32,117 bases of DNA, taken from Clostridia bacterium (GTDB lineage: Bacteria; Bacillota; Clostridia; Oscillospirales; CAG-272). The translations under genes were made by a program, and so were the position numbers. The stretch lies in contig JAFOGE010000173.1 of the NCBI GenBank assembly GCA_017386965.1, positions 1 to 32,117 of the forward strand, read 5' to 3'. Position 1 is the stretch's first letter. Each line of letters begins with the position of its first letter. The notes beneath the pieces were generated by a model. That model made no database searches and had not been told where the DNA came from. It saw only the letters and a list, made by a program, of their open reading frames with translations. Shown in pieces: positions 596 through 26,803 of the stretch.

Positions 596-620
596 TCAAA
601 AAACCACATACGTGATGCAA

Positions 621-664
621 AAACGAAGCCCTGCACGCAGAAATAGGCGTGCAGGGCTTCGTTT
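621..664. terminator. Bidirectional intrinsic terminator between convergent genes
   Basis: Perfect 18-bp inverted repeat AAACGAAGCCCTGCACGC / GCGTGCAGGGCTTCGTTT around an 8-nt loop. An A-run lies to the left (TTTTT on the minus strand, downstream of pgsA) and a GTTT tail to the right. Confidence 0.7.
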
Positions 665-681
665 GCGCCGTAGGGCAGGTA

Positions 682-1293
682 TTATTTTTCGGGATCGAGA
701 TACTTCCAATAGGACGCAATGTAATTGATTCCGGACCACAGAGTGAAGAAGAGCATCAGCACGGCGGTCGTAAGGGAGAGGGGCAGGATCTCCATCAGAT
801 GTGCCAGGGAGGGAATGTTCTGATAGAACAGGGGCTCTGCAATGCAGGCGATCACGCAGGCGATCTGCGTACAGGTCTTGATCTTGCCCAGCATATTCGC
901 GGGAACGACAAGACCGCTGGAGCCGGATAGCACCAGACGGATGGAGGTGACGGCAAGTTCGCGGAAGATGACGATGAGAACGGCCCAGAAGAAGATCGCA
1001 CAGAAGAGGGTGTTCACGTCCTCTCTCGTCAAGGATTTGTAGAGGATCACGAGCATGGCACCCAGAACCATGAATTTGTCGGCCAGAGGGTCCATGAATT
1101 TACCGAAATCGGTAATGAGGTTGTGGCGTCTTGCGATCTTTCCGTCCAGCATATCGGTCAGGGAGGCGATCACGAAGAGGCAGAGGCCGGTGATGCTTGC
1201 CCAGAGTGCGTCCGATACCATCATCACGACAACAAAGATGGGAACCAGGATCATCCGCAGAACGGTCAGCTTATTGGGAAGATTCAATTTCAT
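682..1293 (-). CDS. pgsA: CDP-diacylglycerol--glycerol-3-phosphate 3-phosphatidyltransferase
   Basis: CDP-alcohol phosphatidyltransferase motif DG-x2-AR-x8-G-x3-D-x3-D is seen as DGKIARRHNLITDFGKFMDPLAD. The protein is multi-helix and hydrophobic. Start set at MKLNLPNKLTVLR (ATG 1291-1293) because the longer track ORF (to 1425) would overlap rimO. Confidence 0.85.
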   Translation of the reverse strand: MKLNLPNKLTVLRMILVPIFVVVMMVSDALWASITGLCLFVIASLTDMLDGKIARRHNLITDFGKFMDPLADKFMVLGAMLVILYKSLTREDVNTLFCAIFFWAVLIVIFRELAVTSIRLVLSGSSGLVVPANMLGKIKTCTQIACVIACIAEPLFYQNIPSLAHLMEILPLSLTTAVLMLFFTLWSGINYIASYWKYLDPEK

Positions 1294-1312
1294 AACACGT
1301 ACGCTCGCTTTC

Positions 1313-2680
1313 TTAATTTTTGGAGGCGTCAAGCTGCTTGAGAACGGCAACGCCGTACAGGTCGTAGTCCACGACCTCGCGGATCTTGACAGGAACGAAG
1401 GAGCCGGGCGCGATGCGGCGCTCACTCTTGAAATAGACCTTGCCGTCGATTTCGGGGGCGTCTGCCGCGCTTCTTCCGTAATGCACCTCGGCTACGGGAT
1501 CGTAGTCCTCGCAAAGCACGGAGATCGTTTGTCCGACCTTTTTGCGGTTTTGCTCCTCGTTGATATCCATCTGCACGCGCATCAACAGATCCATGCGGTC
1601 CTGCTTGACCTGCTCGTCGATCTGGTCGGGGAAATCGTAGGCGGGGGTATCCTCCTCGCGCGAATACGGGAAGACGCCCGCACGGTCAAACCTGCGCTCC
1701 TTGACGAAGGCGCAAAGCTCCTCAAAGTCAGCCTCACTCTCTCCGGGGAAGCCGACGATAAAGGTGGTACGGATCACGATCTCGGGGATCTCGCGGCGCA
1801 GCTTGTCAAGGACCTGCTCGATCATGGCGCGGTCGCCGTGACGGTTCATGGACGAAAGCATCCGGTCGCTGATATGCTGCAGGGGGAGGTCGATGTATTT
1901 GAGGATGCGGGGGTTGTCGCGCATCTCGGCGATCAACTCATCGGTGATCTTGTCGGGGTAGCAGTAGAGCAGGCGGATCCAGGGGATCGAGGTCTGCTCG
2001 GTCAGCTGATGCAACAGCTCGGCCAGCGCATATTTTCCGTACAGATCCAGACCGTATCGCGTAATATCCTGCGCGACCACGACCAGCTCCTTGATGCCGA
2101 GCGATTCGAGCTGACGGGCCTCTGCGATCAGATCCTCCATGGGACGGCTGCGGAATTTTCCGCGGATCGAGGGGATGGCACAGTAGGCACAGCGGTTGTC
2201 GCATCCCTCGGCGATCTTGATGGAGGCGGTATAGTCGGGAGTGGTCAGAACGCGGTCGCCTCCCAGACGAACGGTGTTTTTATCCTCATGGGAGTAGTAT
2301 TTCGGCTTTGTGCCTCCCTTTTTCTTCTTGGCGGTCACGGCCTCGATCGCCTCTGCGATGTGGTGAATGCTTCCCACACCAAGCACGGCGTCCACCTCGG
2401 GAAGCTCCTTGAAGATCTCCTCGCCGTAGCGCTCGGCAAGGCAGCCCGTGACGATGATGGCCTTGAGATGGCGGTGCTTTTTGAGCCAGGCCACGTCCAG
2501 AATGTTGTCAATGGCCTCCTTCTTTGCACTTTCGATAAAGGCGCAGGTGTTGACGATGATCACGTCTGCCTCAATGTCCTCGGGCGTGATCTCATGTCCC
2601 GCCTCCAGAACCTCGTGCAGCATGATCTCGGTGTCCAGCTGATTCTTGGGACATCCGAGAGATACGAATCCGATCTTCAT
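1313..2680 (-). CDS. rimO: Ribosomal protein S12 methylthiotransferase (radical SAM MTTase)
   Basis: N-terminal MKIGFVSLGCPKNQLDTE, radical-SAM CDNRCAYC (CxxxCxxC), and a C-terminal TRAM-like segment. The rimO-pgsA adjacency is typical. AAAGGA RBS upstream. Confidence 0.9.
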   Translation of the reverse strand: MKIGFVSLGCPKNQLDTEIMLHEVLEAGHEITPEDIEADVIIVNTCAFIESAKKEAIDNILDVAWLKKHRHLKAIIVTGCLAERYGEEIFKELPEVDAVLGVGSIHHIAEAIEAVTAKKKKGGTKPKYYSHEDKNTVRLGGDRVLTTPDYTASIKIAEGCDNRCAYCAIPSIRGKFRSRPMEDLIAEARQLESLGIKELVVVAQDITRYGLDLYGKYALAELLHQLTEQTSIPWIRLLYCYPDKITDELIAEMRDNPRILKYIDLPLQHISDRMLSSMNRHGDRAMIEQVLDKLRREIPEIVIRTTFIVGFPGESEADFEELCAFVKERRFDRAGVFPYSREEDTPAYDFPDQIDEQVKQDRMDLLMRVQMDINEEQNRKKVGQTISVLCEDYDPVAEVHYGRSAADAPEIDGKVYFKSERRIAPGSFVPVKIREVVDYDLYGVAVLKQLDASKN

Positions 2681-2693
2681 ATGTGATCCTTTC

Positions 2694-3569
2694 TCATTGT
2701 GTTTTCAGGGGAATGCAATGCGTCCAGGCGCGCTTTCCGTCCTTCGTTCGCACCTCGGCGCGGACGAAGGATTCCTCGCCCGTCAGCTTGTAGTGCGCTT
2801 GGCAAAGCGCCTCCCCGGTAAAGGCGCAGCGGCTCCAGACCAGATTGGAGTAAACGACGATCTCGGAGCAGGGGGAGCAGAGAACGGTGACGCCGTCCCC
2901 GTCAAGGCGGAGATGCACCTCGGGTCCCTGCGTAGCGTAGAGCTTGCCCGCGCGGATGGCGGAAAGCAGGGAGGCAGCGCTGTTGTCCTCGGCCTCGACC
3001 ATGATCCAGGAGAGGCATTCATCGGTGCCGTCGTAGTAGTGTGTGTCATCGGCGGCGTGCAGCGGCGCAAAATAGTCCTGCATGGCCAGCATATCCACGA
3101 TGAGGGAGGAATCCGCGCGGCGGGACATATGGACACCCGACACCGAATTATAGATCTCGATCCCGTCCAATTCGCGCAGCGGAAGAATGGCCTCGGGCGT
3201 GTTGAGCGACCAGGCGGGGTGCGCGAGAATGGCAATTCCGTCGGCGCGGTGAATGGCGTCGATGACCTCCTGCGCGGACATGGATTTTGCTACGGACGGC
3301 GGGCGGCTGCATCCGACCGCCACGATGTGAAATACTCCCTCCCGCGCGTCGGCATGGCCAAGGTTGTACTCCGCACCGGAGAGAATCATGATGCCGTCCT
3401 CCTCCGAGCCGGCTCCAAAGAGCCAGTGGTCGGTCAGGGCGATGGCGTCATAGCCTTGCTCACGGTAGAGCTGTAACACCTCTGCGGGCGTTCGGTGTCC
3501 GTCCGAGAGGGACGTATGTGTATGCAGATTGACCTTATAGCGTCGTTTTCCAAAGAGATCGGTTTGCAT
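2694..3569 (-). CDS. PHP-domain metal-dependent phosphoesterase
   Basis: N-terminal VNLHTHTSLSDGH, followed by ALTDHW, ILAHP and other His/Asp clusters typical of the PHP (polymerase/histidinol phosphatase) fold. GGAGGAGGA RBS. First gene of the PHP-rimO-pgsA operon. Confidence 0.8.
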   Translation of the reverse strand: MQTDLFGKRRYKVNLHTHTSLSDGHRTPAEVLQLYREQGYDAIALTDHWLFGAGSEEDGIMILSGAEYNLGHADAREGVFHIVAVGCSRPPSVAKSMSAQEVIDAIHRADGIAILAHPAWSLNTPEAILPLRELDGIEIYNSVSGVHMSRRADSSLIVDMLAMQDYFAPLHAADDTHYYDGTDECLSWIMVEAEDNSAASLLSAIRAGKLYATQGPEVHLRLDGDGVTVLCSPCSEIVVYSNLVWSRCAFTGEALCQAHYKLTGEESFVRAEVRTKDGKRAWTHCIPLKTQ

Positions 3570-3611
3570 AGCGTCCTCCTCCGTTGCTTTTACGATATGG
3601 CATACACATTC

Positions 3612-3640
3612 ATTTTAGCACACCGAGCGGTTTTTGACAA
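3612..3640 (-). promoter_or_regulatory. Sigma-70-type promoter for the PHP-rimO-pgsA operon
   Basis: Minus strand reads TTGTCA - 17 nt - TGcTAAAAT (extended -10). It sits about 40 nt upstream of the ATG at 3569. Confidence 0.55.
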
Positions 3641-3712
3641 GAGCTTTCGAGAAAAATTCATGAAATTCAAGAAAAACCGAAGGATTTACAGGAGAAAAAG
3701 AGAAGGAACCCC

Positions 3713-3843: not shown

Positions 3844-4812
3844 ATGAAGCTGAGTGTTCTCGCAAATCTTTACGGAACCAAAACCTTGGAGGAAACCCTG
3901 CAGATCCTGACCGGACTGGGCGTACATACCGTTGAGCTGGGTGCCGGCGGATATCCCGGAAAGGCGCACTGCAATCCTGCAGAGCTTTTGGCGGACGAGG
4001 CAAAGTACGATGCCTTTATCGCAACGCTGAAGAAATATGACGTCACCGTCTGCGCGCTGGCCGCGCACGGAAACGCACTGCATCCCGATGCAGCCGTTGC
4101 AAAGCAGTTTGACACGGATTTCCGCAACGCCGTGCTCCTTGCGGAGAAGATGGGCGTGGACACCGTCATCACCTTCTCCGGATGCCCCGGCGACCACGAG
4201 GGCGCAAAGTATCCCAACTGGGTCACCTGCCCCTGGCCGGAGGATTTCCTTGCCATTCTCGATTGGCAGTGGAACGAGAAGGTCATTCCCTACTGGAAGG
4301 AAGCGGGCGCGTTTGCAGAGGCGCATCACGTGCCGCACATTGCCTTTGAGATGCACCCCGGATTCGTTGTTTACAACCCCGAAACCCTTCTGCGCCTGAG
4401 AGCTGCCGTTGGTCCCGTGATCGGCGCGAACTTCGACCCCTCGCACCTGATCTGGCAGGGAATGGATCCCGTTGCTGCGATCCGCGAGCTGGAGGGTGCG
4501 ATCTACCACGTCCATGCAAAGGACACCAAGATCGATGCCTACAATACGGCCAAGAACGGTGTTCTGGATACCAAGCATTACGGCGACGAGCTGCACCGTG
4601 CGTGGGTTTTCCGCACGGTCGGATACGGAAACGGCGAAACCTACTGGAGAGATCTGGTTTCCAACCTGCGTCTTTGCGGATATGACCGCGTGCTTTCCAT
4701 CGAGCATGAGGATAGCCTGATGTCCATCGACGAGGGCTTGCGCAAGGCCGTAGCCTTCCTCCAGCCCATCGTGATCACCGAGGAGAAGCCCACCACCATG
4801 GCCTGGGCTTGA
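3844..4812 (+). CDS. Sugar phosphate isomerase/epimerase (xylose-isomerase-like TIM barrel)
   Basis: 322 aa. LGVHTVELGAGGYPGKAH, FEMHPG, HVHAKD and SIEHED match the metal-ligand pattern of the AP-endonuclease-2/xylose-isomerase-like TIM barrel family. Confidence 0.8.
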   Translation: MKLSVLANLYGTKTLEETLQILTGLGVHTVELGAGGYPGKAHCNPAELLADEAKYDAFIATLKKYDVTVCALAAHGNALHPDAAVAKQFDTDFRNAVLLAEKMGVDTVITFSGCPGDHEGAKYPNWVTCPWPEDFLAILDWQWNEKVIPYWKEAGAFAEAHHVPHIAFEMHPGFVVYNPETLLRLRAAVGPVIGANFDPSHLIWQGMDPVAAIRELEGAIYHVHAKDTKIDAYNTAKNGVLDTKHYGDELHRAWVFRTVGYGNGETYWRDLVSNLRLCGYDRVLSIEHEDSLMSIDEGLRKAVAFLQPIVITEEKPTTMAWA

Positions 4813-4827
4813 CCATATCCCCTTTGG

Positions 4828-4870
4828 GACCGCCTCAAATGCGAGCGTGCATTTGAGGCGGTCCTTTTCG
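4828..4870 (+). terminator. Intrinsic terminator
   Basis: Perfect 15-bp stem GACCGCCTCAAATGC / GCATTTGAGGCGGTC with a 6-nt loop, followed by CTTTTCG. It begins 16 nt after the stop codon. Confidence 0.8.
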
Positions 4871-5038
4871 CATGTCCGGGGGGGCGATTCGCTTTTCGGC
4901 AGGCGCTTGCGTGGGCAGACGCCGTTTTTTGTCTGCTTTTTCAAATTAACGTCTGCTTTTCTGCAAAAACGCGCGTGCTTTTGTGCAATTTCACAAAAAG
5001 AGGCCGGCTTTTTTGGTGGCTTTTTCGGGAAAAAGGAC

Positions 5039-5067
5039 TTTACTTTTGGAAAGCACAGGTGTATAAT
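5039..5067 (+). promoter_or_regulatory. Candidate promoter of the cohesin-protease-scaffoldin operon
   Basis: TTTACT - 17 nt - TATAAT, about 68 nt upstream of the ATG at 5135, preceded by a run of T/A tracts. Confidence 0.45.
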
Positions 5068-5134
5068 GAAATTAGTAGGAAAAATGCCGCTGTGCGCATT
5101 TTTTGCAAGGACGGCAAGGAAAGGATCTTACAGC

Positions 5135-6592
5135 ATGAAAAAACGAATCGGATGTTTGCTCTTGGTGAGCGTCTTGCTCTTGCTTGGCATGACGGTTTTT
5201 GCAGGAGCAGAATCACCAACGCTCACGATTGAGGCCGCCGCCGTTGACGGCGAGGCCGGGGATACGGTTACGCTGACCGTTCGTCTGACGGCCAACCCGG
5301 GATTGACCTCTCTTATACTTTCTCTTTCGTACGACCCCGCGCTTCTGACCCTGACGGGGGCAGAGAACGGTTCCCTTCTGGAAGGATGGTATCAGGCAAG
5401 TCCAAGCCCGGATACGATGCCCTATCGCATGGTTTGGGTCGCATCTTCATCACAATCTGCAACGGGTGAGCTGATCCGTTTGGAGTTCCGAATTTCCGAA
5501 GGCGCGCCTCTGGGAGCCGTTGCTTCACTGACGCTGGACATTGCGGAGGCGTATTGCAACGGTGAGAAGATCACGGGGATGACGGTGCAGACAGCTGTCA
5601 ATGTGATCTGTAAGCATACATACGGAGCACACACGTCGGTGGATGCATCCACTCACCAACAGGAGTGCAGCAAGTGTCATCACATTCTCACCGAGGCCCA
5701 CGGCTGGAACGCAGGAGAGATCACCACCCCCGCAACGCACCTTGCCGTCGGAGAGAAGACCTTCACCTGTACGGCCTGCGGCGAAACACGGACCGAGGAG
5801 ATTCCGAAGGATCCGACGCACACCTATAGCGCGTGGGAGAAGCAGGATGCCGAGCAGCACACAAGGGTGTGTGCCTGTGGGGACATGCAGTCCGCCGCAC
5901 ACGAATGGGATGCAGGAACGGTAACCACCCCCGCAACGTATTTTGCGACGGGAGTGCGGAGCTTCTCCTGCAGCAGCTGCGGATTTGAAAGGACGGAGGA
6001 GATCCCCAAGATGGCGATCCTTTCCCCCGATGGATGGATCTTGCCCACTCTGATTGCAGGGATAGTACTTTGCATTGGAATTCTTATTCTGATTCTGGTG
6101 TTGAAGCGGCGCAAGAAGCGTCCGACACCTACCGCACCGCCTGCCCCCGAGGGCGTTCCCCCCAAGCCCGAAGCAGCCGTCACGGAGCCGTTGGCGAAGG
6201 AAGCAGATACGGTCACGGAGGCATCCACGGGAGCCTCTGCGGATCCCGCCGCAGAGCCGCCCGCAGGGGAGGGGACGGAAGAATCTGCAAAAGAACCGAT
6301 CGAAGAACCCATTGAAGAACCCATTGAAGAATCGATCGAAGAACCCATTGAAGAACCCATTGAAGAATCGATAAAAGAGCCTGCAGAGGAATCTTTGCAG
6401 GAACCGATCCAAGATCTACCCAAGCCCGATGCGGACGAAGCGTCCGCAGGGAACGCGCCGAGTGATGCGGCGGAGGAGGGCGGCACAGAGCCGTCGGAGG
6501 CCCTGCCCATCGATGCGGACGTTCCGGACAAGGAAGCGGATGACAGAACAGAGGAACCGAGGATACTCGGTGAACAGGAGGAAAGCAAATGA
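5135..6592 (+). CDS. Membrane-anchored cohesin-domain protein (signal peptide, cohesin, 2 Cys/His repeats, TM helix, acidic repeat tail)
   Basis: Start chosen at MKKRIGCLLLVSVLLLLGMTVFAGA (signal peptide, AAGGAAAGGA RBS). Cohesin-like module: GDTVTLTVRLTANPGLTSLILSLSYDPALLTL...GELIRLEFRI. TM helix ILPTLIAGIVLCIGILILILVL is followed by KRRKKR. The tail is rich in EPIEEPIEES repeats. Confidence 0.85.
   Translation: MKKRIGCLLLVSVLLLLGMTVFAGAESPTLTIEAAAVDGEAGDTVTLTVRLTANPGLTSLILSLSYDPALLTLTGAENGSLLEGWYQASPSPDTMPYRMVWVASSSQSATGELIRLEFRISEGAPLGAVASLTLDIAEAYCNGEKITGMTVQTAVNVICKHTYGAHTSVDASTHQQECSKCHHILTEAHGWNAGEITTPATHLAVGEKTFTCTACGETRTEEIPKDPTHTYSAWEKQDAEQHTRVCACGDMQSAAHEWDAGTVTTPATYFATGVRSFSCSSCGFERTEEIPKMAILSPDGWILPTLIAGIVLCIGILILILVLKRRKKRPTPTAPPAPEGVPPKPEAAVTEPLAKEADTVTEASTGASADPAAEPPAGEGTEESAKEPIEEPIEEPIEESIEEPIEEPIEESIKEPAEESLQEPIQDLPKPDADEASAGNAPSDAAEEGGTEPSEALPIDADVPDKEADDRTEEPRILGEQEESK
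5213..5605 (+). other. Cohesin module of the anchor protein
   Basis: Pattern G-D-T-V-x-L-x-V...L-S-Y-D-P-x-L-L, later GELIRLEFRISEGAPLG. This is the layout of type-I-like cohesin beta-sandwiches. Confidence 0.7.
6298..6369 (+). repeat. Perfect 36-bp tandem duplication (2 copies) with a nested 12-bp period, in frame
   Basis: GATCGAAGAACCCATTGAAGAACCCATTGAAGAATC occurs at 6298-6333 and again at 6334-6369. It encodes (I)EEPIEEPIEES twice. Confidence 0.95.
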
Positions 6593-9500
6593 AAGCTTTA
6601 GCAACAAAGAAATTCTTCTCCCTTTTGTTGGCGATCTGTATGGTGGTCAACACCTTCGTGGCCGTTCCCCTGACGATCTTTGCCGTGGAGAGCAACCCCT
6701 CCTCGGGCAAGGATCCCATGGAAAAAACGGAGGAAAGCATCTCGCATGCGTACGAGCCCTTTGCCTCGATCAAGGAATACCAGTATTCCGAGAATGCGGA
6801 CGAGGTGGATGAGCATTCGCTGATGCTCAAGCTCCGTGCGGACGCGCCGGCCCTGTCGCCGATCCCTGCAGAGCTGGCAGAGCGCGGTGTTACGCTGGTG
6901 CGCACCATGGTGGACGTTACCACGCCCGAGGCCATGGCAGAGCTTGGCGTGTCCGAGCCCTACCGTTGGGTTATGGTGGGATTTGCAGAGGAAAAAGCAT
7001 CCGAGGTAGCCCTTTCCTTCGTGGACGTTCCTTACGTTCTGGATGCGGAGTATAACTACACAAGACAAAGCTCGGAGCTTCCTTCGGCGGAGGAAAATCC
7101 CCTGATGAGCAATCAGTGGCATTTGCAGGACGCGTCCTTGCAGAACACATGGAAGTACGTCGATGAGAATCAGCTTCATGAAAAGCTGGAGAAGGTCGTC
7201 GTTGCGGTCATTGACACCGGTGTGGACTATACGCATCCCAACCTGGTCAACAGCATGTGGATCAACGTCAACGAAACACCCGGGGACGGCATTGACAATG
7301 ACGGAAACGGATACGTGGACGATATTTACGGTGTTTCTACCGTTGGAAACATCTTTGACGCAAACGGGAATCCGATGGACGAGATGGGACACGGAACGCA
7401 CGTCGCAGGTATTATTGCTGCTTCCGAGGGCTCCATGGGCGCCGTGGGCGTTGCATACGGCTCCAAGATCATGGCGATCAAGGCCGGCGACAGCAGCGGT
7501 ATCTTCAGTGACAGTGACATCATCGAGGCGATCAACTACGCGATTCTGATGGGCGCGGACGTTATCAACATGAGCTTTGGTAGCTATGCGCGCTCTGCGG
7601 CCATTGAGGATGCGCTTGCCCTGGCATATACCTCGGCGGTTCTCGTTGCCGCTGCGGGAAATGACGGCTTGGATATTGTCAAGCACGGAATGCCCTCCTA
7701 TCCCGCCGCCTACAACTTCGTGATCGGCGTTATGGCAACCGACTCCCGTGGCGGCATTGCCGGCTTCTCCAATACCGACTACATTCTCCGCCGCAATTCT
7801 CTGGAGTACGAGATCTGTGCACCCGGTGTTTCCATTTTCAGCACGCTTCCCGGCAACCGCTACGCCTCCTGGAGCGGAACCTCCATGGCCTGCCCCTATA
7901 TTTCTGCGGTTGCGGCCATTCTGCGTGCCAAGTTTGACGACAAGTCGGTCTATTCCTCCCGCTACATCATGGGCCAGCTGGTCGGCACGGCCATCGGCAG
8001 CGACGGAATCTTCCCGATGGTCGATCCCTATGCGGCCATGACCCAGATCCCCGAGCCGGACGTTTCCTACTACGATTACTACATCTTTGACGATAAGTCG
8101 TATTCGGAGAAAAACAACGGCGACGGTATCATCGACGCCGGCGAAACCATCGGTCTTGGCGTTCTGATCCGCAACCACTGGGGGCAGGCGCGCAACACCA
8201 AGGTCAAGCTGCTCGCGGCAGCCAGCGCGACCGATCCCACGGTTAGTCCTTACGTAACCTGGATCACCGATACGATTGATTACGGCGACGTTGGCACCTT
8301 CAACAGTGCGAACAACGGTTTCTCCTATGACACCGACGGCGTGATTACGGGAATTTCCAATCCCTTCCTGTTCACGGTGGCGGAGAATACGCCAAACGAT
8401 TATCACATCCCGTTCTCCCTGATCATCGACTGTGAAAGCTACACCGAGTCGGACGAGGTCAAGACCTATCACTTCGATAAGGATGTCTTTAACATCCAGG
8501 TGCGCAAGGGCTATGAGCTTCCCCGTCTGATCGACAAGGATATGACGCTGACGGCAGATCGGTATTACATCATTGCCGGCAGCACCCTGATCGAGAGCGG
8601 TGTTACCGTTACGGTCGAGCCGGGCACGCAGATCCAGTTCTGGGGCGATTACAGCAAGGAGCTGTATGCGGGAACCGATGTAGCCGAGCTTTTGGTGGAC
8701 GGTGAGCTGATCATCCGCGGAACCGCGGCCAATCCCGTTGACATCTTCCCGTCGGGCGGCATGAGCGATATGAAGATCGACATCCGCACACGCGCAGCCG
8801 GCGGACGGATCCACATGTCCTACTGCAACGTTGCCAATCCGTGCCTGGACATCACCACGGCAGATCACTGCTACTTTACGCAATTGATCTTCGACAGTAT
8901 GTGCGAATTAGGGCAGGATATGGACGGCCGCTGGTACCACAACATCGTCGTTCCTTATGTAGTGGCAGACAAGATCTCCAACTCCATTTTCTACGAGCTG
9001 GGATATCGTTATATGTACTATGATTACCGCCTGCGCGTTGAGGGCGAGCTGGTTGGCAACCTCTTTGACAGCTGCGGACTCAACTTTAACACCTGGTCGG
9101 TCGAGGCCTTCCGTGACAACGTCTTTTTGAAGAACTACCGCCTGGTAGAGTCGCAGATCGACGACCGCACCTATCTGACCTCCGAGTTTACGATCAAAAC
9201 GCCGTACAGCGGCATCAATACGATGAATCCCTTCTGCCCCGTGAAGAATCCCGAAACGGGCTCCACCTATTTCGTTCTGCAGACGCCCTCCATCCTTCTG
9301 GCAGAGGACTTTGCAAAGCGCCTGGGAGGATCGGTCGTTCGCCTGGACGACGAAGCGGAGAAGGAATTCGTTTTGGAGTATGCAAAGCGTTATTTTGCAT
9401 ACAACGAGGACCTGCAGGAATATGCGTGGGGTCCCAGTTTGCATCACCTGTATATCGGCTTCTACGGAAATGAGCAGGGCGTGACCCACGTCGGAGAGGG

Positions 9501-12500
9501 CGATGCTGCGGATTGGCTGCAGGTTCCGGCAAATTCCTCCATCCCCCACATCTACACCTCCTACAACAAGACCCAGGATGACGTCGTGACGACAGAGGCC
9601 TGGATGTCCAGTTTCTATTCCGGAGATTCTTACTGGATGGGAGCCCTTTTCAGCAAGAATCCCTCCTCCACCGACTATCGGGATCGCGGAGTGATCATTG
9701 AGATTCCCGGTGAGATCACACCGCTTTCGGTTTCCTTGGAGTGCGATGCCCTGACGATTCCCTCCAACACCGTGGATTATCGCGTGCTGGCATCGGTGTA
9801 TCCCAAAACCGACAACTACACGCTTTCCTGGAGCTCGGACAACGAGAGCGTTGTCACGGTCAGCGCCGACGGAAAGCTGACGGCAACCGGTCTTGGCACG
9901 GCCAAGGTAACGGTTACGGTGGACGGCTCGGGTCTGACCGCCTCGATGATGGTGGTCGTTACCCAATACTACGCACCCGAAAGCATTACGGACACGACGT
10001 CCGAGATCCTTCTGACGGCGTATCAGCAAACACAGAAGCTCTCCCCCGTAATTGCTCCTGCAGAAGCAACCGCGCTGCTCTCTTACTCCAGCTCGGATAC
10101 CGGCGTAGCCGTGGTTGGCATGGACGGCACGGTAACGGCTCTTTCCAGCGGAACCGCAGTCATTACGGCACAGGTCGTGGGAACCGAGCTTTCGATCTCC
10201 TACACGGTCAAGGTTGTAATTGCTCCCTCGGAGATCGCCCTGAAGCAGGATTATATCATTTGCGGCATGGACGATGAGAAGAAGACCGTTCTCTCTTACA
10301 GCTATTCTCCCGCTTACGCAACCGTGGGCAAGGTTGAATATCTCTCCTCGGATGCGTCGGTGGTAACGGTGTCCGACCGCGGCGAGCTGACGCCGGTAGG
10401 ACCCGGACACGCCGTGGTGTGGATCTCCTTCCCCGAGATCGACCGTGCGCTGCAGGCCAAGGTCATCGTTGTGGAGGACAGTCATTCCTTGCAGATCGTC
10501 CGGGGCGAGGCACTCGGCAATTGGCAGGGTGCATCGGTGCTCTACGCCGAGGACGGCACGACCTACCTCTTGTTAACCGAGAGCGTCTTTGGCAACAGCA
10601 AGCTGCCGCAGAAATTCCCGCACAAGACGAAGCAGGTCAGCGCCGTCGGCTCAAATGAGTGGTTCTACATCGACATGGAGAACAATTTGCGGTATTTCTC
10701 CGCAGATTCCAACGGATCCAACGGAGAGGGAGCCTTGATCTCCGAAAAGGTTTCCCACGTTTGGTCCTCTCGTTGGAATGGAAGTCGCGCCTATTACCAG
10801 AAGGCCGACGGAACGGTCTGGTTCTATTCCAACGGCACCTCTGTACAGAATGAATGGCTTGAGGATGTGACCCGGGGAATTCGCCACAACGGAAATTACA
10901 TTTTCCTGGATGCCCAGGGAACGCTCTGGTATGATGATACGCCGGAGCAAAACGGCGAGCCTCTGACAGCGCTTTCCTTTGATTCGCAGCCCTATGCGAT
11001 GGATAAGAAGATCGTCTTCCTGCAGGAGAACGGTTGCTTTGATGAGGCAGGCACCTACTACAGCTTTGAATACCCGAACGGAGAATTGGAGCTGGTCAAG
11101 AATTCCGAGTTTGATATAGAGCGCTTGACGCAGACCCTGAAGGTGACCTGGGATCAGGTGGTGGATGCAACCTACGCTTTCAATTCCGTAACCTCCCATT
11201 GGCTGCTCCTGCTTGCCGACGGACGGGTTGTGTATGCGGGATACTACTATCCCGGCGACACGAATATGCTCTCCGACCTGATTGATATCCCTGCGTACAG
11301 TGGAATCGGATATTGCTTCCTGGATCTGGAGGATCCCATCGTATCGCTTGGCAAGGGTGCCTTGATCGCCGAGGACGGATCGGTCCGTACGTATATTACG
11401 GATTACAGTGCGGTTCTTGGCAACGGCAAGACCTATAACAATAACAGAACGCAAAAGCGTCCCGTCAATCCTTGGTTCGGCATGGAGGATGACGGACAGG
11501 GCATCACGGTGGAAAAGGTGACCTTCACAAACGGTGAGGGCAGCACGGTGACCGAGGAGATCCAGCTGCAGGGCTTGCTGCAGGGACTTGTCGATCCCGC
11601 CTCCGCGCTTCGCCTGGCGCTCTCCAAGCAGGCACAAAAGGGCACCTTCCAGTCCATTCTGCTCAAGGACGGCTTTGGCAAGAAGGTGGAGGTGGAGGCG
11701 ACCCTGGATCGCTTTGGCGATGTCCTCGTGATCACGCCCAAGTCCCCCTTGAAGGCAGGCTACGATTACACGCTGACGATTCCCGCCAACGTGATGATGG
11801 ATGAGTTTGACAACGCCAATCGCAGCTTCGCCTTTACGTTTACCGTTTCCGGCGTTGCCGTCTATGAGGTGCCGGTGACCGGAATCGTTGCAGAGAGTGC
11901 AACGGAGATCACCCTGGCATACGGAGAGAGCCAGCTTTTGGATGCTTGCGTGCTTCCCGAGAACGCAAGCATGCAGAAGGTTTATTGGAGCTCCTCCGAC
12001 GAGAGAGTGGCAACCGTGAACCCCACCGGCTACGTCACCGGATACTACAACGGAACCGCAACCATTACGGCTACTACGGCCGACGGCGGATTCACTGCCG
12101 TGTTCACGGTAAAGGTTTCCACCGCTCCCGAGAGCGTATCCCTTTCCACGGGCTACTTCCATCTGGAGATTGGAGAAACCGGCAAGCTGGAGATCTCCTC
12201 CTATCCCGATTACGCGCATCTGGGAACGCTGACCTACGGAAGCAACAATGCTGACGTCGTCACGGTAGATGCGAACGGTGTTCTGACCGCAAAGGCGTTG
12301 GGAAGCACATTGGTTTACGTGACCTCCTCGATCACGGGCGAGTCCTACTACGCTCTGGTAGACGTCGTCGCGGACACCACCTCGGCCGAGATCAAGACGG
12401 TCTATCGCGACGGACATCATTCCGATTTTGCCTTCTTCATTGCCGAGGATAACACCGTTTGGTACGTTTCGACCGATTCTTACGGAAACGGAAATATCTA

Positions 12501-15500
12501 CTTGCCTCGCAAGGCCAATTTCAAGGCAAAGGAGGTCATCAAGGATCCTCGTTACACCGTGGAGGTTTGCTACATTTCCATGGACGGCGATCTTTATCGC
12601 ACGAATCTGTTTGCAAACGAAACGCCTTTCTTGATTGCGGAAGACGTAACGGCAGCGGCCATCTGTGGTCAGCATTTGTTCTATCTCAAGAGCGACGGAT
12701 CGGTTTACCACCGCCATATGGAGCAGGGAACCACCACGAAATGCACTATGCTGACCGGTACGACCGACCTTTACTCCTCTGACTATCGTGCCGTCTTCTT
12801 CCTGAGCAAAACGGGAGAGGTGCGATGCGCTACAGCACAAGCACTGAACGAGAGCCTTACCAACAGTGCCTTCAAGACCGTGGACATTCCAACGGGCGAG
12901 AAGATTCTTTCGATGACGCGCTATTATGCCGTCGGTGAAAAGGGCGGACTGTATCGCATTTCCGAGATGAACGGCGAGAGAGCGGCCACTGAGCTGACTA
13001 TGATCACCGGAAATGCGGAGTATCAGGCGATAAAAGAGCAAATTGTGGAGATCGTTGCGGCAGATTTCCACGGCAACGATGGATTTGTTGCCAGAATGGC
13101 AGACGGCAGCGTCTTCTACATCGGAAACGCTTCCAATCTTCCGGTGGGTCTTAAGAATTGCGTGGACACCTCCAATACGACGGCGGAGAACGGTGCGATC
13201 ATTGCACGTCCGATTCAGGGCATCGCATCGGTTGCGGATCTGGAGATCGGCTATTTCGTGCTTTCGGACGGAACGGTTCGCGCATATCAGGCTACCAATT
13301 ATCAGGATGGTACCACCTACAAGATTATGCTTGCCAACAACAACGTGCAGCGGCAAAGCTACCGCATGCCCGTCGTTTCCTGGTTCGGCGCGCAGGGCGA
13401 CCGCACCGATATCCTGCTGCAAAGCGGATCGGCCGTTGCCGGTGATGCTGTTACGCCGCTTACACAGGGTGAAAATCTGACGGAGGGCGTGAAGGCTGGC
13501 TCCTCCTTCGTCTTCCGATTTGACAAGCAGCTTTACGCGGTTACCGAAAACGTTGCCTTGGTTGACATTGAGGGCAACTTGATTCCCGTTATGCTGTCGA
13601 TTTCCGGCAACACCCTGACCGTAACGCCGGCACAGGCGTTGCGCGGCGGCATGCTCTATACATTGAGCATTTCCCACAACACGGTGCAGGATATTTTCCA
13701 GAACACGACGGACATCCTGGAATTCCATTTCACAACCGAAGGAACGCTGAGTCTGGAGGTTCCCGTAACGGGAATTACGGATACGGTTACGCAGATTACT
13801 CTCGAATATGGAGAGATGCAGAGCTTGATGCCGACCGTGACGCCTGCCGATGCGACCCTGCCGACTGTGATCTGGGAAAGCTCGGATAAAGCCGTGGCAA
13901 CCGTTACACAGGACGGACGAGTGACCGGATGGAGAAACGGCACGGCAACGATCACCGCTAAAACGATGGATGGCGGCCATACGCACACGTATCAGGTCAC
14001 GGTTTCCACCGCTCCCGAGAGCGTATCCCTTTCCACGGGCTACTTCCATCTGGAGATTGGAGAAACTGGCAAGCTGGAGATCTCCTCCTATCCCGATTAC
14101 GCGCATCTGGGAACGCTGACCTACGGAAGCAACAATGCTGACGTCGTCACGGTAGATGCGAACGGTCGTCTGACCGCAAAGGCGTTGGGAAGCACATTGG
14201 TCTATGTGACCTCCTCGATCACGGGCGAGTCCTACTACGCTCTGGTGGACGTCGTCGCGGACACCACCTCGGCCGAGATCAAGACGGTGCATGGCAACCA
14301 GTCCAATGATACCTTCTTCATTGCAGAGGACAATTCCGTTTGGTACATTACAACGAACAACTATAATAACGAGAATGTGTATTTGCCTCGTCGGGCAGGA
14401 TTCAAGGCAAAGGAAATTGTTCGGGATACGTATTGGAGCCGCATCTATTATATTTCCACGGAGAATCAGCTTTATTACACCGATTGCAACATGCGCAACG
14501 ATTGGAAAACCTTGGTTGCGGATGACGTAGCTTCGGTCGTTCCTCGCGGTGAGTATATCTTCTATGCCAAGACCGACGGATCCGTGTATTATTACAGCTC
14601 CAATCTCGGAAAGCACACGAAATGCACGCTGCTGACCGGTGCTACGGAGATGTATTATTGGAACAATTCGTTCTTCTTTGTCAAGGAAGGCTTGCTCCGT
14701 TACGTAAAGGATTCCGCACTGGCGGACGGTATTGTCAACAGTGCCTTCAAGACCGTAAGCATTCCGAACAATGAAAAGATTCTCTCCATGACCCACGATT
14801 ATGCGATTGGCGAGAATGGCGGAATCTACCGCGTTTTGTACAATGACGGAGAGGTGACGGTGTCTGAGCTGATCTCGATCACGCAGAGCGCCGCATACCA
14901 GTCCATCAAGGATCAGATCGCAGAGATCGCTGCGGCAGATTTTAATGGAAACGATGGATTCATTGCCAGAATGGCAGACGGCAGCGTCTTCTACATTGGA
15001 AGCGGCTACGAGATGCCAATCGGTCTGAAAGATCGGGTGGATGCTTCGGATCTTTCGGCAGACCACACGACGATGATCGCGCGTCCGATTCGGGGCCTTT
15101 CGTCCGTTGTGGATCTCTCCACCGGATACTTCGTTCTGGCAGACGGAACGGTTCGCGCCTATCAGGCGACCCGTTATCAGGGTGATACCTCCTACAAGAT
15201 CATCCTTGCTAACAACAATCTGGACAGACAAAACTACCGCATGCCGGTCGTTTCCTGGTTCGGTGCACAGGGTGAGTACGCGGACATTTTGCTTGAGAAG
15301 GCAGAAGGCGTAAACGGGGACGCAAAGGTAGAGCTTTCCGCGGGAGAGCTTGCAGTGCAGCTGGGCGTGGATTCCTCCTTCGTTTTGACCTTTGACGAGC
15401 AGATCTTCATGGTGCTTGACGGCATTTCGCTGATCGACATGGGCGGCAATCTGGTTCCGATCAAGATCACCATTTCGGATCGTTCCCTGATCATAACGCC

Positions 15501-18500
15501 TAAGGAGCCCCTCAAGGAAGGTACCCTCTACACGCTGAGCATTCCGTCCGGATTGGTTCTGGATATCTTCCGGAATACCACGGCGGATCTGGACTTCAAC
15601 TTCACCACCACGGGAGAGCTGCATTTTGCAATTCCCGTCACCGGTATTACCGATACCGTCGGACAGCTGACGCTCAGCTACGGCGATGCGCAATATCTGA
15701 CGCCGACGATCGCACCTGCCGATGCCAGCATGAAGCGTGTGACCTGGCATTCCTCGAACGAGAACGTGGCTACCGTTACGCAGGACGGCCTTGTAACGGG
15801 TAAGCAGAACGGTACGGCTACCATTACGGTTACCACCTTCGACGGTCCACACTCGTATGCGTACACGGTCACGGTTTACACTCCCGTTGAGTCCTTTACA
15901 CTGTCCGAGGAGTTCCTGCTTCTGGATCTTGCAGAGAAGAAGACCGCGCAGCTGGTTGGTACGGTAACACCGACCTATCTCGAGAACAGCGGCCGCTTTA
16001 CCTGGGCGGTTGCGGATCCAAGCATTGCAACGGTGAGTGCCGACGGAACGGTAACCGCGCTCAAGGCCGGTGTTACTGCCGTTTACTGCTATTGCGAGGG
16101 CATCGACGAGCCTGTTGTTTGCGTGGTTTCGGTCCTGACCGATTTTGCGGATGCATCCATCAAGCACGTTTCCCAAAAGTATGACAATGGATTCCTCTTT
16201 GAGGCCGACGGATGCCTGTGGATGGCGGATGCGAATCACCTGGTCCCCGAGAAGCTGGTCTTCCAAAAGCCGATCGTGCAGGAGCCTGCACAGGGCGAGG
16301 GCGAAGGCGAGCAGACGGCTGAAGCTACGACCGCGGAGATCCTGGACATCGCGGCGATGAAGCAGGTGCTCTACGTTCCCGCGTATTGGTACGGATCGGA
16401 TGCGAACTCCTTCCTGATTCTGTTTTTGGAGGAGGACGGAACCTTGCTGTTCTATTCCTCCCTGCAAAAGGAGGCGCCGATCCTGACCAAGGAGAACGTG
16501 CAAAAGATCGCTTATGCGAACGATTATCTGGTGCTTTTGCTGAAGGACGGCACGCTTCGCAAGATCTCGACGCACGGCGTCTATTCGCAGGAGGGTATGC
16601 CCCTTCAGTTGAACTATCAAGAAGATGAGGTTCAGGATATTGCGGGCATTCAGGATATCGCATATTCGGATTTCAATAGCAGTCTTTTCCTGTTGCAGAT
16701 CAACAAGGGACTGGTATGGCGCTATGATCCCAACGGAGGCTACCTGGAGCTCGTATTCAACAAAGAGCCCATTACCGACATCACTGTTGGCAACGGAAGC
16801 TTTATGCTGGGCGAGAGCGGCGTCTATTATCCGCTGCGTGGCAACCCCGAGAACTGCGAATCGGTCTTCAACGAGCTGAAGAACCATGACTTCTACAAGC
16901 TCAATCTTGAGCTTGCGGATGTTGTTCGTCTGCGATACGACCTCGATCTGCTGATGCTTACGAAGGATGGCAAGCTCGCCTACTTCGGTCAATACCCCTC
17001 GAGCTGCCCGCTTGCGGCGCAGTACAGCGGCTATACTTGGACGCAGGATTCTGTAAATTCTTATCTGCATTATATTGATACGGGTAAGGCGATTGCCGAG
17101 ATCGGACGCAACTGGATTGTCTTTACGGACGGCACGGTGCAGATGTTTGGAGAGTATGAGTATTTTGGCAACGCAAAGCCCTCGAACAATTATCAAGAAT
17201 CGCTTTGTTCTCCCTACTTTACCGAAACCGAGATCGACATTCACAGCTTGATCCTGAACAAGGTTTTGGTAGGCGAAACCGAGATCGACGTAACCGATCC
17301 GCAGGCTCCTGTGGTGGATCCTGCCACGACCATCACGCTGGAGTTCAGTCTGCCTCTGCTTCCCACCGATCTGCTGCTTGCCACCACGGTGACGGATTCG
17401 AAGGGCAATTATCCTGCCTTTGAGATCCGCGTGGAGGGCAGAAGGATTCTCCTGATCTTCGAGGAGCCCTTGACGGCGGGAGAAACCTATACGGTGACGG
17501 TTTATGAGGATGCGGCACAGGATATTTTCTACAACGAAGGCGATCGGATCGACTTTACCGTAACGATCAACAACACGGCGGCCGAGGTGCAGTCCTACAA
17601 GGATAGCCTCTATCCCACCACGGAGTATTCTCCCGACTGGTCGCTCAAGCAGCTGCAGGCCGCTCTGCGTGAGTACTACGACGAGGTGCTTCACGAGTAC
17701 ATCGTGGAGAATTCCAAGGACGTAGGAAACGCCTTCCTCAATGCGTTTGCAAACCCGGATACCACCTCCTGGATGGATCTGAAGGCAGAACAGAGCTACA
17801 ACCAGATCGGCTCCCTGATCGGAAACTTCTGGGGAACGACCAAGACCGATCTGATCGACCGCATCATCTATGACGTCAACGATAGCTTCAATTATGGAGA
17901 GATCCTGTACGATCCCATCCTTACCGCGCCCTCTGAAACGGCTTATCCCTTCGTGACCTCCATCGTTGTCAAGAACAGCGAGGGCAACATCGTTTCCTCC
18001 GTCGGCTTGGAGGAGATCACGGTTGAGGTTTCCTTCAACCGCGATATGGATACGGCCGTGCAGCCCCTGGTTGCTTACGGCAGCGATTATCCCTTCGGCG
18101 ATTTTGCCGTGGAGGGTGATTGGAAGGATGCAAGAACCTGGGTTGGAACCACCAAGATCTCGGCGGTTACCGGATCCGGCACGCAGTTCTTCAAGGTACG
18201 CGGCGCGGTGGCTGCGGATGATAGCTGGCTGGTGACCGGAAACGATTACGAGCGCTTTGCATTCACCATCGCAACCTCCGGTGCAAAATCCATGTCCATG
18301 CAGGCAAACGGAGCCGACGGCTACGTTTCCCTGGAGTGGACGCAGGATGACTACGAAACTCTGGCAGGCTACAACGTTTACCGAAGCGAGCTGATGGACG
18401 GTACCTACCAGAAGATCAACACCACGCTGATCTCGCAGGGTGTTACCTCCTTTGTGGATGATAATGTTGCTCCCGGCGTGCAGTATTACTACTACTTCAC

Positions 18501-23395: not shown

Positions 23396-24208
23396 ATGCA
23401 TAACTGGATTCTGTCCTATCTTTCCGATCTTGCCGCCTGGGTTCTTCTGACGCTTGGCGTGATCCTGCTTTGCGGACTTACGGTGGAGCTTTGCGCTGCG
23501 GCCTTTTCGAGGCTGATCGGACGGGGAAGCGGCGCGGTCTTTGATCTGACGGCGGTGATCGGCACTCCCGTACACGAGCTGGGACACGCGATGATGTGTC
23601 CGCTCTTTGCGCATCGGATCGAGTGCGTCAAGCTCTGGTCGCCGAGGGCGAGAAACGGGATGTACGGCTTTGTGGAGCATCGCTACAACCGCCGCAACCT
23701 CTGGGCAAGGCTTGGCAATCTGTTCATCGGCATCGGCCCGATCCTGAGCGGACTCGGCGTTACGGTGCTTGCACTTTGGCTTTGCTTTCCCGCACAATGG
23801 AATGCGCATCTTTCCGCTTCGGTCTCCCTTTTAGGCACATCGCCTACCCCGACGGACCTGTTCCGTCAAAGCCTTTCCTTACTGGCGTCCCTTCCTTCCG
23901 CCTTTCGGGCCGACTGGCCGAGAAGCCTTGTGGGTCTTCTCGTGATCCTCTCGGTCTGCCTGCACATTCGGCTCAGCTGGCAGGACATCAAGGGCAGTGC
24001 GAGCGCGTTTTGGCTTTACCTCGCGCTTTGCGCGATCCTCTCGCCCCTGGCAAGGCTTCTCGGCCTGCAGAGCGCGATCCTTCACGCCCTGCGCCTGTGG
24101 AGTCTGCAGCTGCTCTCGCTCTTCGTCCTCATTCTGGCGTTCTCCCTGCTTTGGCTTGCGCTTGCCTTGCTTGTTTGTCTGTTCCGCGCCGTCAAACGCG
24201 CGTTTTGA
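23396..24208 (+). CDS. Polytopic membrane protein with HExxH motif (zincin-like, DUF3267-like)
   Basis: VHELGHAMM sits after the first TM helix. About 6 hydrophobic helices follow. AAGGAGAAGG RBS. Confidence 0.6.
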   Translation: MHNWILSYLSDLAAWVLLTLGVILLCGLTVELCAAAFSRLIGRGSGAVFDLTAVIGTPVHELGHAMMCPLFAHRIECVKLWSPRARNGMYGFVEHRYNRRNLWARLGNLFIGIGPILSGLGVTVLALWLCFPAQWNAHLSASVSLLGTSPTPTDLFRQSLSLLASLPSAFRADWPRSLVGLLVILSVCLHIRLSWQDIKGSASAFWLYLALCAILSPLARLLGLQSAILHALRLWSLQLLSLFVLILAFSLLWLALALLVCLFRAVKRAF

Positions 24209-26352: not shown

Positions 26353-26440
26353 AAGCAATCGAGAGGAGGTCGGCGCAAACGCGCTCCCGCAGGGAGCCTT
26401 TTGTCCGCGGCCTCCCCCAAGGAGGAAAGGAGGGGTGAAC

Positions 26441-26803
26441 ATGAAGCCCGAAAAGAAGAAGCTTGCGCTGCGGTTGCTTCTGCATACGGTCATTCTCGCG
26501 GTGATCTATTTCCTGTTGGCGGATCGGGGTCTGCCGATGCACATTCTGTATATCGGACTGGGCGCAGTCCTTGCGCTGGTCTATGTCATCTACAATCGCG
26601 GACTGGCGTGGAAGAATGCCACGGAGGAGATGCTTCCGTCCAATATGACGCAGGAGGAAAAGCGCGCCTTTTTGCAGGCGCACCGTGACCGTCTGCTTCG
26701 TTCGGAGTGGATGCTGACGCTGATCTTTCCCATCGTCGTCACCCTCATCCTGGATTACGCCTATCTGTTCCTTCTGCCCTATCTGGAGAATCTGGTCGGA
26801 TGA
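26441..26803 (+). CDS. Small hypothetical membrane protein (about 3 TM helices)
   Basis: MKPEKKKLALRLLLHTVILAVIYFLL starts after a GGAGGAAAGGAGGGG RBS. Its stop overlaps the next start (ATGA at 26800-26803). Confidence 0.6.
   Translation: MKPEKKKLALRLLLHTVILAVIYFLLADRGLPMHILYIGLGAVLALVYVIYNRGLAWKNATEEMLPSNMTQEEKRAFLQAHRDRLLRSEWMLTLIFPIVVTLILDYAYLFLLPYLENLVG

Follow-up and report, generated by a model that had tools for sequence, protein, structure and literature searches.

What a gut bacterium might do with a subtilisin-like protease of more than four thousand residues, and why such a protein should end in a dockerin, are the questions raised by contig JAFOGE010000173.1 of Clostridia bacterium (assembly GCA_017386965.1), the whole 32,117 nt of which were analysed and are referred to here as the window. 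The original prediction, made from the sequence alone, had described the open reading frame (ORF) at 6589..19296 (+) as a giant 12.7-kb modular S8 protease whose non-catalytic modules suggest a long stalk or a multivalent binding function. By examining the gene together with its neighbours, a context absent from that prediction, we found the protease to be the middle gene of three, flanked by a gene for a cohesin-bearing anchor upstream and one for a three-cohesin adaptor downstream. These neighbouring cohesin genes would explain the purpose of the protease dockerin. With moderate confidence, we read the system as a cell-surface protease displayed through cohesin-dockerin contacts on a stalk of tunable length, which is possibly ligand-binding; the secreted subtilase is probably active.

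The three genes are closely packed. The stop codon of the anchor gene overlaps the ATG of the protease gene (ATGA), with the protease ribosome-binding site (RBS), GGAGGA, at 6577-6582, and a gap of 28 nt separates the protease stop from the adaptor start. A single promoter-like site, likely the operon promoter, was found upstream of the set, and a perfect sigma-70 promoter comes only after the third gene (Table 1). As judged from the sequence, anchor, protease and adaptor form one operon. Within the anchor ORF (4847-6592) the real start is the ATG at 5135, which follows an RBS. The anchor cohesin (aa 32-155, 5.2e-9) lies only ~140 residues from the membrane, and the transmembrane (TM) helix (nt 6032-6103) is followed by KRRKKR and then by an acidic, Pro/Glu-rich cytoplasmic tail; neither S-layer homology (SLH) repeats nor an LPXTG/sortase signal was found in the anchor. 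From this architecture we predict a type I membrane protein that exposes its cohesin extracellularly. The three adaptor cohesins lie at aa ~26-150, ~241-375 and ~376-505 of the adaptor, which brings the two flanking genes to four cohesins. In the adaptor orthologue of the related locus L002, three cohesin stretches score as well.

The arrangement recurs in the related loci fetched for comparison (numbered with L; homologous proteins are numbered with P). The adaptor gene lies 3′ of the protease in all six loci that reach past it (L002, L004-L008), and an anchor or a TM-bearing fragment lies 5′ of the protease in L002, L003 and L005-L008; among the loci with upstream sequence only L004 differs. 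There, no separate anchor gene was found, and the adaptor orthologue, of which aa 5-468 align to aa 9-457 of the window adaptor, lacks a dockerin and carries Cys-rich repeats and a C-terminal TM helix instead. When two proteins are fused at the very point where one has a dockerin and its counterpart a cohesin, this is a classical sign that the two modules pair. From this fusion of adaptor and anchor we therefore infer that the adaptor dockerin pairs with the anchor cohesin, leaving the adaptor cohesins for the protease dockerin. In the assembly so proposed, the membrane-bound anchor would present one extracellular cohesin to be filled by the dockerin at the adaptor's C-terminus, and the three adaptor cohesins would receive the C-terminal dockerin of the protease, with up to three proteases per anchor.

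The anchors also differ in their spacers. Two Cys-rich repeats were counted in the window anchor, two in L005, five in L003 and nine in L002, and the anchors with 2, 2 and 9 repeats pair with proteases of 4, 4 and 2 super-repeats, respectively; these three data points hint that the inverse counts compensate each other in total reach. In the window the repeats (nt 5615-6025) are two ~67-aa units of the pattern C-x2-C ... H-x-W ... C-x2-C ... IP, for which no Pfam match was found and which look like tandem zinc-ribbon-like spacer modules. Related Cys-rich stretches were seen in L002 (1558-4611), L003 (7827-9959) and L004 (20401-22575 and 22711-26361), and a protein of >1,217 aa in L004 consists almost wholly of related units. 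The anchor tail (6104-6589), ~160 aa long, acidic and Pro/Glu-rich, is built of tandem EEPIEEPIEES units, and low-complexity tails after the TM helix also end the anchors of L002, L003, L005, L007 and L008.

The protease gene runs from ATG to stop over 4235 codons of protein with zero in-frame stops, and an identical protein is deposited at NCBI as MBQ1230372.1 under the name 'MAG: Ig-like domain-containing protein [Clostridia bacterium]'. A metagenome-assembled genome (MAG) of the same species, assembled independently, encodes MBQ1963442.1, which matches aa 778-4235 of the protein, with the whole set of four super-repeats, at 98.6% identity and with two gap positions. The gene of a third MAG of this species lies in two pieces (aa 1-1911 and aa 2448-4235), whose breakpoints coincide with a near-identical 300-nt patch shared by super-repeats 2 and 3. 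This patch, likely the product of recent gene conversion, is the only stretch of DNA in the gene that is hazardous for assembly. The G+C content along the gene is 0.51-0.58, compared with 0.55-0.63 in most of the flanking sequence. So far as short-read data show, the frame and the four-unit structure are real, and the 12.7-kb ORF first proposed is borne out by the intact frame, the deposited protein and the second MAG.

At the N-terminus, aa 1-33 form a plausible Sec signal peptide. The region that follows (aa ~34-200) is conserved in orthologues and, by analogy with other subtilases, a pro-region is its likeliest role. An I9-like propeptide had been placed here (6800-7060); the conserved region of ~165 aa does exist, but the family label found no support, with zero Pfam matches, I9 included, at E<=1 in aa 1-200, S8 as the sole match in aa 1-320, and no propeptide in the PDB matched by an orthologue-derived profile of aa 36-200. 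The S8 domain predicted with its triad was upheld, scoring 175.8 bits against a PF00082 cut-off of 21.8, with D209 (VIDTGVD), H268 (HGTHVAG) and S432 (SGTSMACP) and the oxyanion residue N358 (AAGNDG) in canonical motif order. It makes up 267 of the 4235 residues (6.3%), in keeping with the share of less than 10% originally estimated. Searching the PDB with the catalytic domain retrieved 148 subtilases at E<=0.1, the nearest being deseasin MCP-01 (2e-46), followed by Plasmodium SUB1 and the classical subtilisins; that the nearest structure is collagenolytic is a weak hint on substrate.

Behind the catalytic domain, aa 470-1040 were modelled by AlphaFold2 (AF2) from a 16-sequence alignment, with a mean predicted local distance difference test score (pLDDT) of 64.6. 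The beta-sandwich that had been called CARDB-like is confidently modelled at aa ~489-645, but it has no PF07705 match, and Foldseek places the CARDB structure 3idu only at rank 30 (E 0.011) among generic beta-sandwiches. For the beta-helix proposed next to it, only the fold class stood: aa ~650-830 form a regular series of 3-6-residue strands (pLDDT ~80-95) compatible with a beta-helix, but no Pfam match to the region and no PDB match with its profile were found. When the head model was searched in PDB and BFVD, Foldseek yielded generic beta-sandwiches only, most of them matching the sandwich adjoining the solenoid. The next domain, taken earlier for a C-type-lectin-like segment, has low AF2 confidence and no direct Pfam match to Lectin_C on the protease itself, but a profile of aa 875-1045 (orthologues, P0001 and P0174) matched only C-type lectin domains in the PDB (best PLA2R, 1.4e-7), and Lectin_C was found in the Fibrobacter homologue P0001 (8e-10, above threshold) and weakly in P0174 (1.5e-3). 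Through these homologues and profiles it is supported as a degenerate C-type lectin domain: Cys pairs, EPN/QPD and WND motifs are missing from the protease sequence in the alignment, with the remnants GEPK and GQPEN only in P0174 and P0001.

Self-comparison of protease fragments yielded super-repeats with a period of ~629 aa between this head and the tail, and Pfam counted 9 Big_2 domains (in groups of 3+2+2+2) and 4 SbsA-type Ig-like Big_5 domains (aa 1669-1752, 2295-2383, 2922-3007 and 3573-3649). Both results confirm the predicted four super-repeats of Big_2 (3, 2, 2, 2), a propeller-like module and an SbsA-type domain. The propeller-like module, a stretch of ~350 aa between each Big_2 group and its Big_5 that has no significant Pfam match, contains recurrent DG[ST]V-type strands spaced ~40-55 residues apart. 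A loose motif search in super-repeat 2 gave nine matches, about six of which read as blade strands, and GGLYR (~aa 2122) was added by eye; seven blades per module are likely. The four copies are 21-57% identical to one another, with ~14 invariant columns.

The identity of this module emerged at the profile level. None of the protease's own modules matched Pfam RCC1 or RCC1_2 above threshold (best in super-repeat 2, RCC1_2 at E 0.14 and DUF5050 at 0.017), single-sequence PDB searches with propeller 2 and with the tail returned nothing useful, and propeller 2 drew a single match when homologues were sought by word index. By an exhaustive profile search with all four copies, 424 proteins were found at E<=0.001; the whole module occurs in only five 50%-identity clusters, and the other matches are many short blade-like stretches in very long proteins. 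Of nine distant matches sampled, seven proved to be genuine RCC1/WD40_RLD proteins, and RCC1 was matched below threshold in an eighth. The profile also matches human RCC1 in the PDB (1a12; E about 4.5e-4 to 4.9e-4) and, in hhalign, the RLD protein P0041 with 94% probability, and the positionally equivalent module of L009 exceeds the Pfam cut-offs for RCC1 (3.5e-12) and RCC1_2 (5e-11). The propeller-like label is thereby sharpened into that of a strongly diverged RCC1-like propeller, supported by profile-level homology but not by a direct RCC1 match in Pfam.

The ~240 aa following the array had been left unassigned, and they are among the best-conserved parts of the protein in orthologues. We found that this region resolves into a junction module of ~105 aa (aa 3684-3788) and an Ig-like sandwich (aa 3789-3900). 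The junction module has no family match and, by profile, no solved relative; GNYWG-type motifs, which we take to be marks of NosD-like helices, serve as a lead only. In the AF2 model of the tail (26 sequences, mean pLDDT 75.9) it scores 30-60, compared with ~90 in the flanking Ig domains. A search with aa 3650-4100 found 38 relatives, including Betaproteobacteria, Caldilineaceae and Bacilli MAGs, which often end in a dockerin, TIG or cohesin. The three tail sandwiches resemble tandem FN3/Ig arrays. Pfam and AF2 agree with the predicted FN3 domain, later Ig-like modules and dockerin; the last matches Dockerin_1 (PF00404) at aa 4177-4227 (3.7e-10; 40.3-45.1 bits against a cut-off of 22.9), contains the Ca-binding segments DINRDGAVNSAD and DVNRDGRVTVID, and is strongly conserved among orthologues.

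Comparison with relatives places the array between a conserved head and a conserved tail. Orthologues with 38-50% local (BLAST) identity have 4259, 4786, 3574 and 2924 aa with 4, 5, 3 and 2 propellers, respectively, and contigs of water-deer, sheep and other gut MAGs carry the protease head at 61-83% identity. Exactly one super-repeat separates the lectin domain from the junction module in L009. Residues 17-247 of P0174 match protease aa 755-999, in the solenoid and lectin domain, and its residues 230-734 match aa 3629-4137; in P0175 and P0180 the lectin end '...IIE[IL]PG' runs straight into the junction module. The Caldilineaceae homologue of L010 goes further, joining protease aa 856 to aa 3708 within ~29 codons and lacking both the lectin domain and the array; the gene directly upstream of it is for a canonical RCC1 protein of 878 aa. 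From these head-to-tail joins in short relatives, the array therefore appears as an expandable insertion at one domain boundary, and the family forms a series of 0, 1, 2, 3, 4 and 5 super-repeat units, in which the array is predicted to be lineage-specific and variable in copy number. The long-stalk reading of the original prediction thus gains comparative support, and its view of more than 90% of the protein as non-catalytic spacing or binding modules holds up as far as architecture is concerned.

Two of these loci deserve a remark of their own. In L010 (9398-10150) one in-frame stop (…DSTLI*THYAW…) stands between the parts annotated as an S8 peptidase and a TIG/cohesin protein, whose cause may be a mistake in sequencing, decay into a pseudogene or recoding. 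In L009 (4305-13219) the homologue is followed by a 1089-aa scaffoldin with cohesin and dockerin, a 601-aa transglutaminase-core/Big_2/dockerin protein and a 1157-aa cohesin protein; by its gene content, L009 reads as a larger non-CAZyme cohesin-dockerin cluster, that is, one of cargo other than carbohydrate-active enzymes (CAZymes).

In the displayed-protease reading, the array (9 Big_2, 4 Big_5 and 4 propellers) and the tail domains would be the stalk that carries the catalytic and lectin-like head through and beyond the cell wall. Its length, roughly estimated from typical domain sizes, would be several tens of nm, which would bring the head to insoluble or large protein and glycoprotein substrates, and the propellers and Ig domains may bind ligands as well. 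We infer stalk function, activity and substrate alike. A narrower version, in which this is a private, non-cellulosomal, single-cargo 'fishing-line' protease whose reach is tuned by the super-repeats (0-5) and inversely by the anchor Cys repeats (2, 2, 5, 9), with the RCC1 propellers recognising a specific host, plant or microbial surface, seems to us rather unlikely. Several points weigh against the displayed-protease reading as a whole. The dockerin-cohesin pairing is drawn from one fusion event, and the hierarchy could differ, for example with the protease dockerin directly on the anchor cohesin. In the minimal homologue the junction module comes directly after the solenoid, and alone it folds poorly in AF2; head and tail may therefore pack against each other, with the array as a loop. 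Our view being that of the 32-kb window, the protease might belong to a larger cellulosome that degrades fibre. All assemblies are short-read, and extra near-identical repeat copies could have collapsed.

Among the alternatives, it is possible, though not likely, that the protein is in the main an adhesin or target recogniser, whose propellers, nine Big_2 domains and lectin-like domain bind mucus, plant material or microbes, with the protease as an accessory and the repeats tuning avidity and not reach. A protein that is more than 90% non-catalytic would suit this, and so would propellers that keep their position across orthologues at 38-50% identity; the separate RCC1 protein beside the array-less Caldilineaceae homologue suggests a functional link between propeller and protease, and tight binding to proteins is known from secreted RCC1-fold proteins of bacteria, BLIP-II among them. 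However, the four propeller copies have diverged in a way that suits spacers more than a conserved site for binding, and canonical Ca/sugar motifs are missing from the lectin-like domain; target recognition is, moreover, compatible with the stalk and does not exclude it. A different geometry, which we think quite unlikely, would have the junction module pack on the head solenoid, as in the array-less ancestors, so that the protease head stays beside the Ig-FN3-Ig-dockerin tail while a giant loop of ~2,800 residues, made up of the lectin domain and the four super-repeats, stands out from it. The passage from solenoid to junction module within ~29 codons in the Caldilineaceae form and the junction module directly after the lectin domain in P0174, P0175 and P0180 speak for such a loop, as do the low pLDDT of the isolated module and the likewise poorly defined end of the head model. 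Nevertheless, in hhalign the junction module does not resemble the solenoid rungs, as a further rung of the head would (0.6% probability), and P0015 (911 aa, not flagged as partial) stops right after the solenoid, the head being therefore viable without the junction module.

Improbable, too, is the proposal that the protease is an accessory part of a conventional plant-fibre cellulosome, in which the scaffoldins would be general, carrying CAZymes from other loci as well, and the protease would trim proteins of the plant cell wall or regulate the complex. In its favour are the ruminant-gut origin of the DNA, the extra scaffoldins and the transglutaminase-core protein with a dockerin in L009, and the published cases of cellulosome producers that have dockerin-bearing peptidases or an S8-bearing scaffoldin (PMC5301203, PMC3413522). 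Of the marks of a cellulosome, the three-gene set has a scaffoldin with cohesins and dockerin-bearing components, but within the window those of a cellulosome sensu stricto, CAZyme cargo or a scaffoldin carbohydrate-binding module (CBM) and attachment by SLH or sortase, were not found. No glycoside hydrolase (GH), CBM, carbohydrate esterase (CE) or polysaccharide lyase (PL) gene occurs in any ORF of the 32-kb window, the genes around the operon being housekeeping ones with no CAZyme among them; across the related loci fetched, the protease and its two partners are kept together as a unit; and anchoring is by a TM helix. An assembly artefact, that is, a chimeric or collapsed ORF made from short-read repeats, is very improbable. 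The patch of 96% identity links super-repeats 2 and 3 exactly where the contigs of another MAG break, and an exact-sequence look-up of the protein was empty, although a cluster look-up returned MBQ1230372.1. On the other hand, the super-repeat DNA outside the patch is only ~70% identical, and all four super-repeats recur unbroken in the second MAG. The architecture is shared by four additional lineages of orthologues, whose ORFs are intact and hold 2-5 units, and no frameshift or stop interrupts the 12.7 kb.

Known systems resemble this one in parts. In Ruminococcus flavefaciens FD-1 a peptidase-dockerin protein binds ScaE, its module being cysteine-peptidase-like and not S8 (PMC5301203), and in A. 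cellulolyticus an S8 subtilisin-like peptidase module is found on a cohesin protein (PMC3413522). Shared with these cellulosomal proteins are the surface attachment through type I/III dockerin-cohesin contacts, the scaffoldin genes nearby and the origin in gut or fibre-associated Clostridia. In contrast, the protease here has its own three-gene operon in a window without CAZymes, a C-terminal TM anchor in place of SLH or sortase attachment, and a size ~4-10 times larger owing to the RCC1/Big_2/Big_5 array. Lactococcal PrtP, the streptococcal C5a peptidase ScpA and SpyCEP are large multi-domain S8 cell-envelope proteinases of Gram-positive bacteria with a pro-region, Fn3/Ig-like domains and a spacer, and act on extracellular protein targets. 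The N-terminal signal and pro-region, the Fn3/Ig-like domains after S8 and the spacer between enzyme and anchor recur here. Unlike them, the protease has a beta-solenoid-like region and a C-type-lectin-like domain and is 2-3 times longer. Despite a functional likeness, assignment to the PrtP/ScpA type was rejected, as the protein is without PA-domain insertion and LPXTG: in Pfam the S8 match is one uninterrupted stretch of 267 aa, and the C-terminus is a dockerin.

Deseasin MCP-01 (PDB 3vv3) of Pseudoalteromonas, a collagenolytic enzyme and the best structure match for aa 202-451 (2e-46), is likewise a secreted S8 protease with a C-terminal binding domain, but it is small and has one PKD domain, and the likeness is confined to the catalytic domain and says little on substrate. 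A preprint describes giant proteins of gut Oscillospiraceae that are made up almost entirely of canonical RCC1 repeats, with no enzyme or anchor reported (bioRxiv 10.1101/2023.11.21.568195). They share with our protein the amplification of extracellular RCC1-type propellers in very long proteins of gut Clostridia, and distant propeller-profile matches were of that kind; here, however, the propeller copies have diverged strongly, take turns with Big_2 and Big_5 domains and lie inside a protease. The amylosome of Ruminococcus bromii is a non-cellulosomal cohesin-dockerin system displaying amylases on the cell of a gut Clostridia member. It is alike in displaying enzymes other than cellulases on such a cell, whereas the cargo here is a protease, apparently a single dedicated one, and membrane-anchored. 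In the literature covered, which is incomplete, no description of the protease family or of a protease-dedicated cohesin-dockerin operon was found. What was already known is the protein as a deposit under an uninformative name; new are the combination of modules, the dedicated operon with a TM cohesin anchor, the expandable Big_2/RCC1/Big_5 cassette and the family-less junction module.

Table 1. Positions in the window of the features of the operon and of the protease modules
Feature	Position (nt)	Residues	Strand	Remarks
Promoter-like site upstream of anchor gene	5039..5067		+	TTTACT-17-TATAAT, 10 of 12
Anchor gene	5135..6592	485 aa	+	signal peptide, cohesin, two Cys-rich repeats, TM helix, acidic tail
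Signal peptide of protease	6589..6687	aa 1-33	+	read by eye: K-rich n-region, hydrophobic core, IFA/VE
Conserved N-terminal region, presumed pro-region	6688..7188	aa 34-200	+	conservation in orthologues
Peptidase S8 catalytic domain	7192..7992	aa 202-468	+	PF00082, 1.6e-51
Beta-sandwich domain	8053..8523	aa ~489-645	+	confident in AF2; invariant NNGDGxxDAGE motif
Beta-solenoid-like region	8536..9228	aa ~650-880	+	AF2; confidence drops beyond aa ~830
C-type-lectin-like domain	9241..9717	aa ~885-1043	+	profile/homologue evidence; terminal conserved strand IIEIPGEI
Inserted array	9721..17628	aa ~1045-3680 (~2,640 residues)	+	four super-repeats of Big_2 (3, 2, 2, 2), RCC1-like, Big_5
RCC1-like propeller 1	10486..11523	aa ~1300-1645	+	
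Near-identical patch	12108..12407 vs 13995-14294		+	300 nt, 96% identity; rest of super-repeats 2 and 3 ~70%
RCC1-like propeller 2	12391..13413	aa ~1935-2275	+	
RCC1-like propeller 3	14266..15288	aa ~2560-2900	+	
RCC1-like propeller 4	16141..17238	aa ~3185-3550	+	most divergent copy; acidic insert
Junction module	17638..17952	aa 3684-3788	+	NNAFLN...W...GN[YF]WGTT...D..D...P.L; conserved across phyla
Ig-like, FN3 and Ig-like domains	17953..18873	aa 3789-3900, 3902-3994, 3997-4095	+	AF2, pLDDT ~85-95
Divergent InlB B-repeat (Flg_new_2)	18880..19101	aa 4098-4171	+	Pfam
Type I dockerin	19117..19293	aa 4177-4235	+	two DxNRDGxxxxxD loops
Adaptor scaffoldin gene	19325..21037	570 aa	+	signal peptide, cohesin, Big_2, cohesin, cohesin, dockerin
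Terminator-like hairpin	21049..21095		+	GC-rich AAGGGCGC...GCGCCCTT, then TCTTGT; read by eye, not listed by scanner
Sigma-70 promoter before trkH	21218-21246		+	perfect extended, TTGACA-17-TGcTATAAT, 12 of 12

Elsewhere in the window, the TTG start listed for trkH at 21218 is spurious and the ATG at 21315 likely, because 21218-21246 is the promoter. The ORFs at 23396-24208, 24265-24972 and 26162-26803 (+), in the sense orientation of their neighbours, had no Pfam match. A 542-aa BspA-type leucine-rich-repeat protein (29800-31428, −; LRR_5, 2.4e-117), a probable surface protein, had no detectable dockerin. Opposite the protease gene, an antisense ORF of 2,952 aa (10651-19509, −) was rejected as a gene, being codon-aligned with the sense frame and a by-product of codon bias: it is long because TTA, CTA and TCA, whose reverse complements are stops, are nearly unused, occurring 4 times among the 4,236 codons of the protease gene and 0-5 times per gene in all other genes of the window. 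Further antisense ORFs over the protease gene lie at 6598-8883 (−) and 8908-10485 (−).

Three previously unlabelled parts of the protein are now assigned, namely a divergent RCC1 propeller, a degenerate C-type lectin domain supported through its homologues, and a widespread junction module. Cohesin-dockerin contacts are usually discussed for polysaccharide degraders, and here they would serve the private display of a protease by three genes in uncultured Clostridia of the ruminant gut. The natural series of 0-5 stalk units and the one adaptor-anchor fusion make the order of assembly and the role of stalk length directly testable. If active on dietary, host (mucin, immunoglobulin) or microbial proteins, the protease would be a candidate contributor to hindgut proteolysis.

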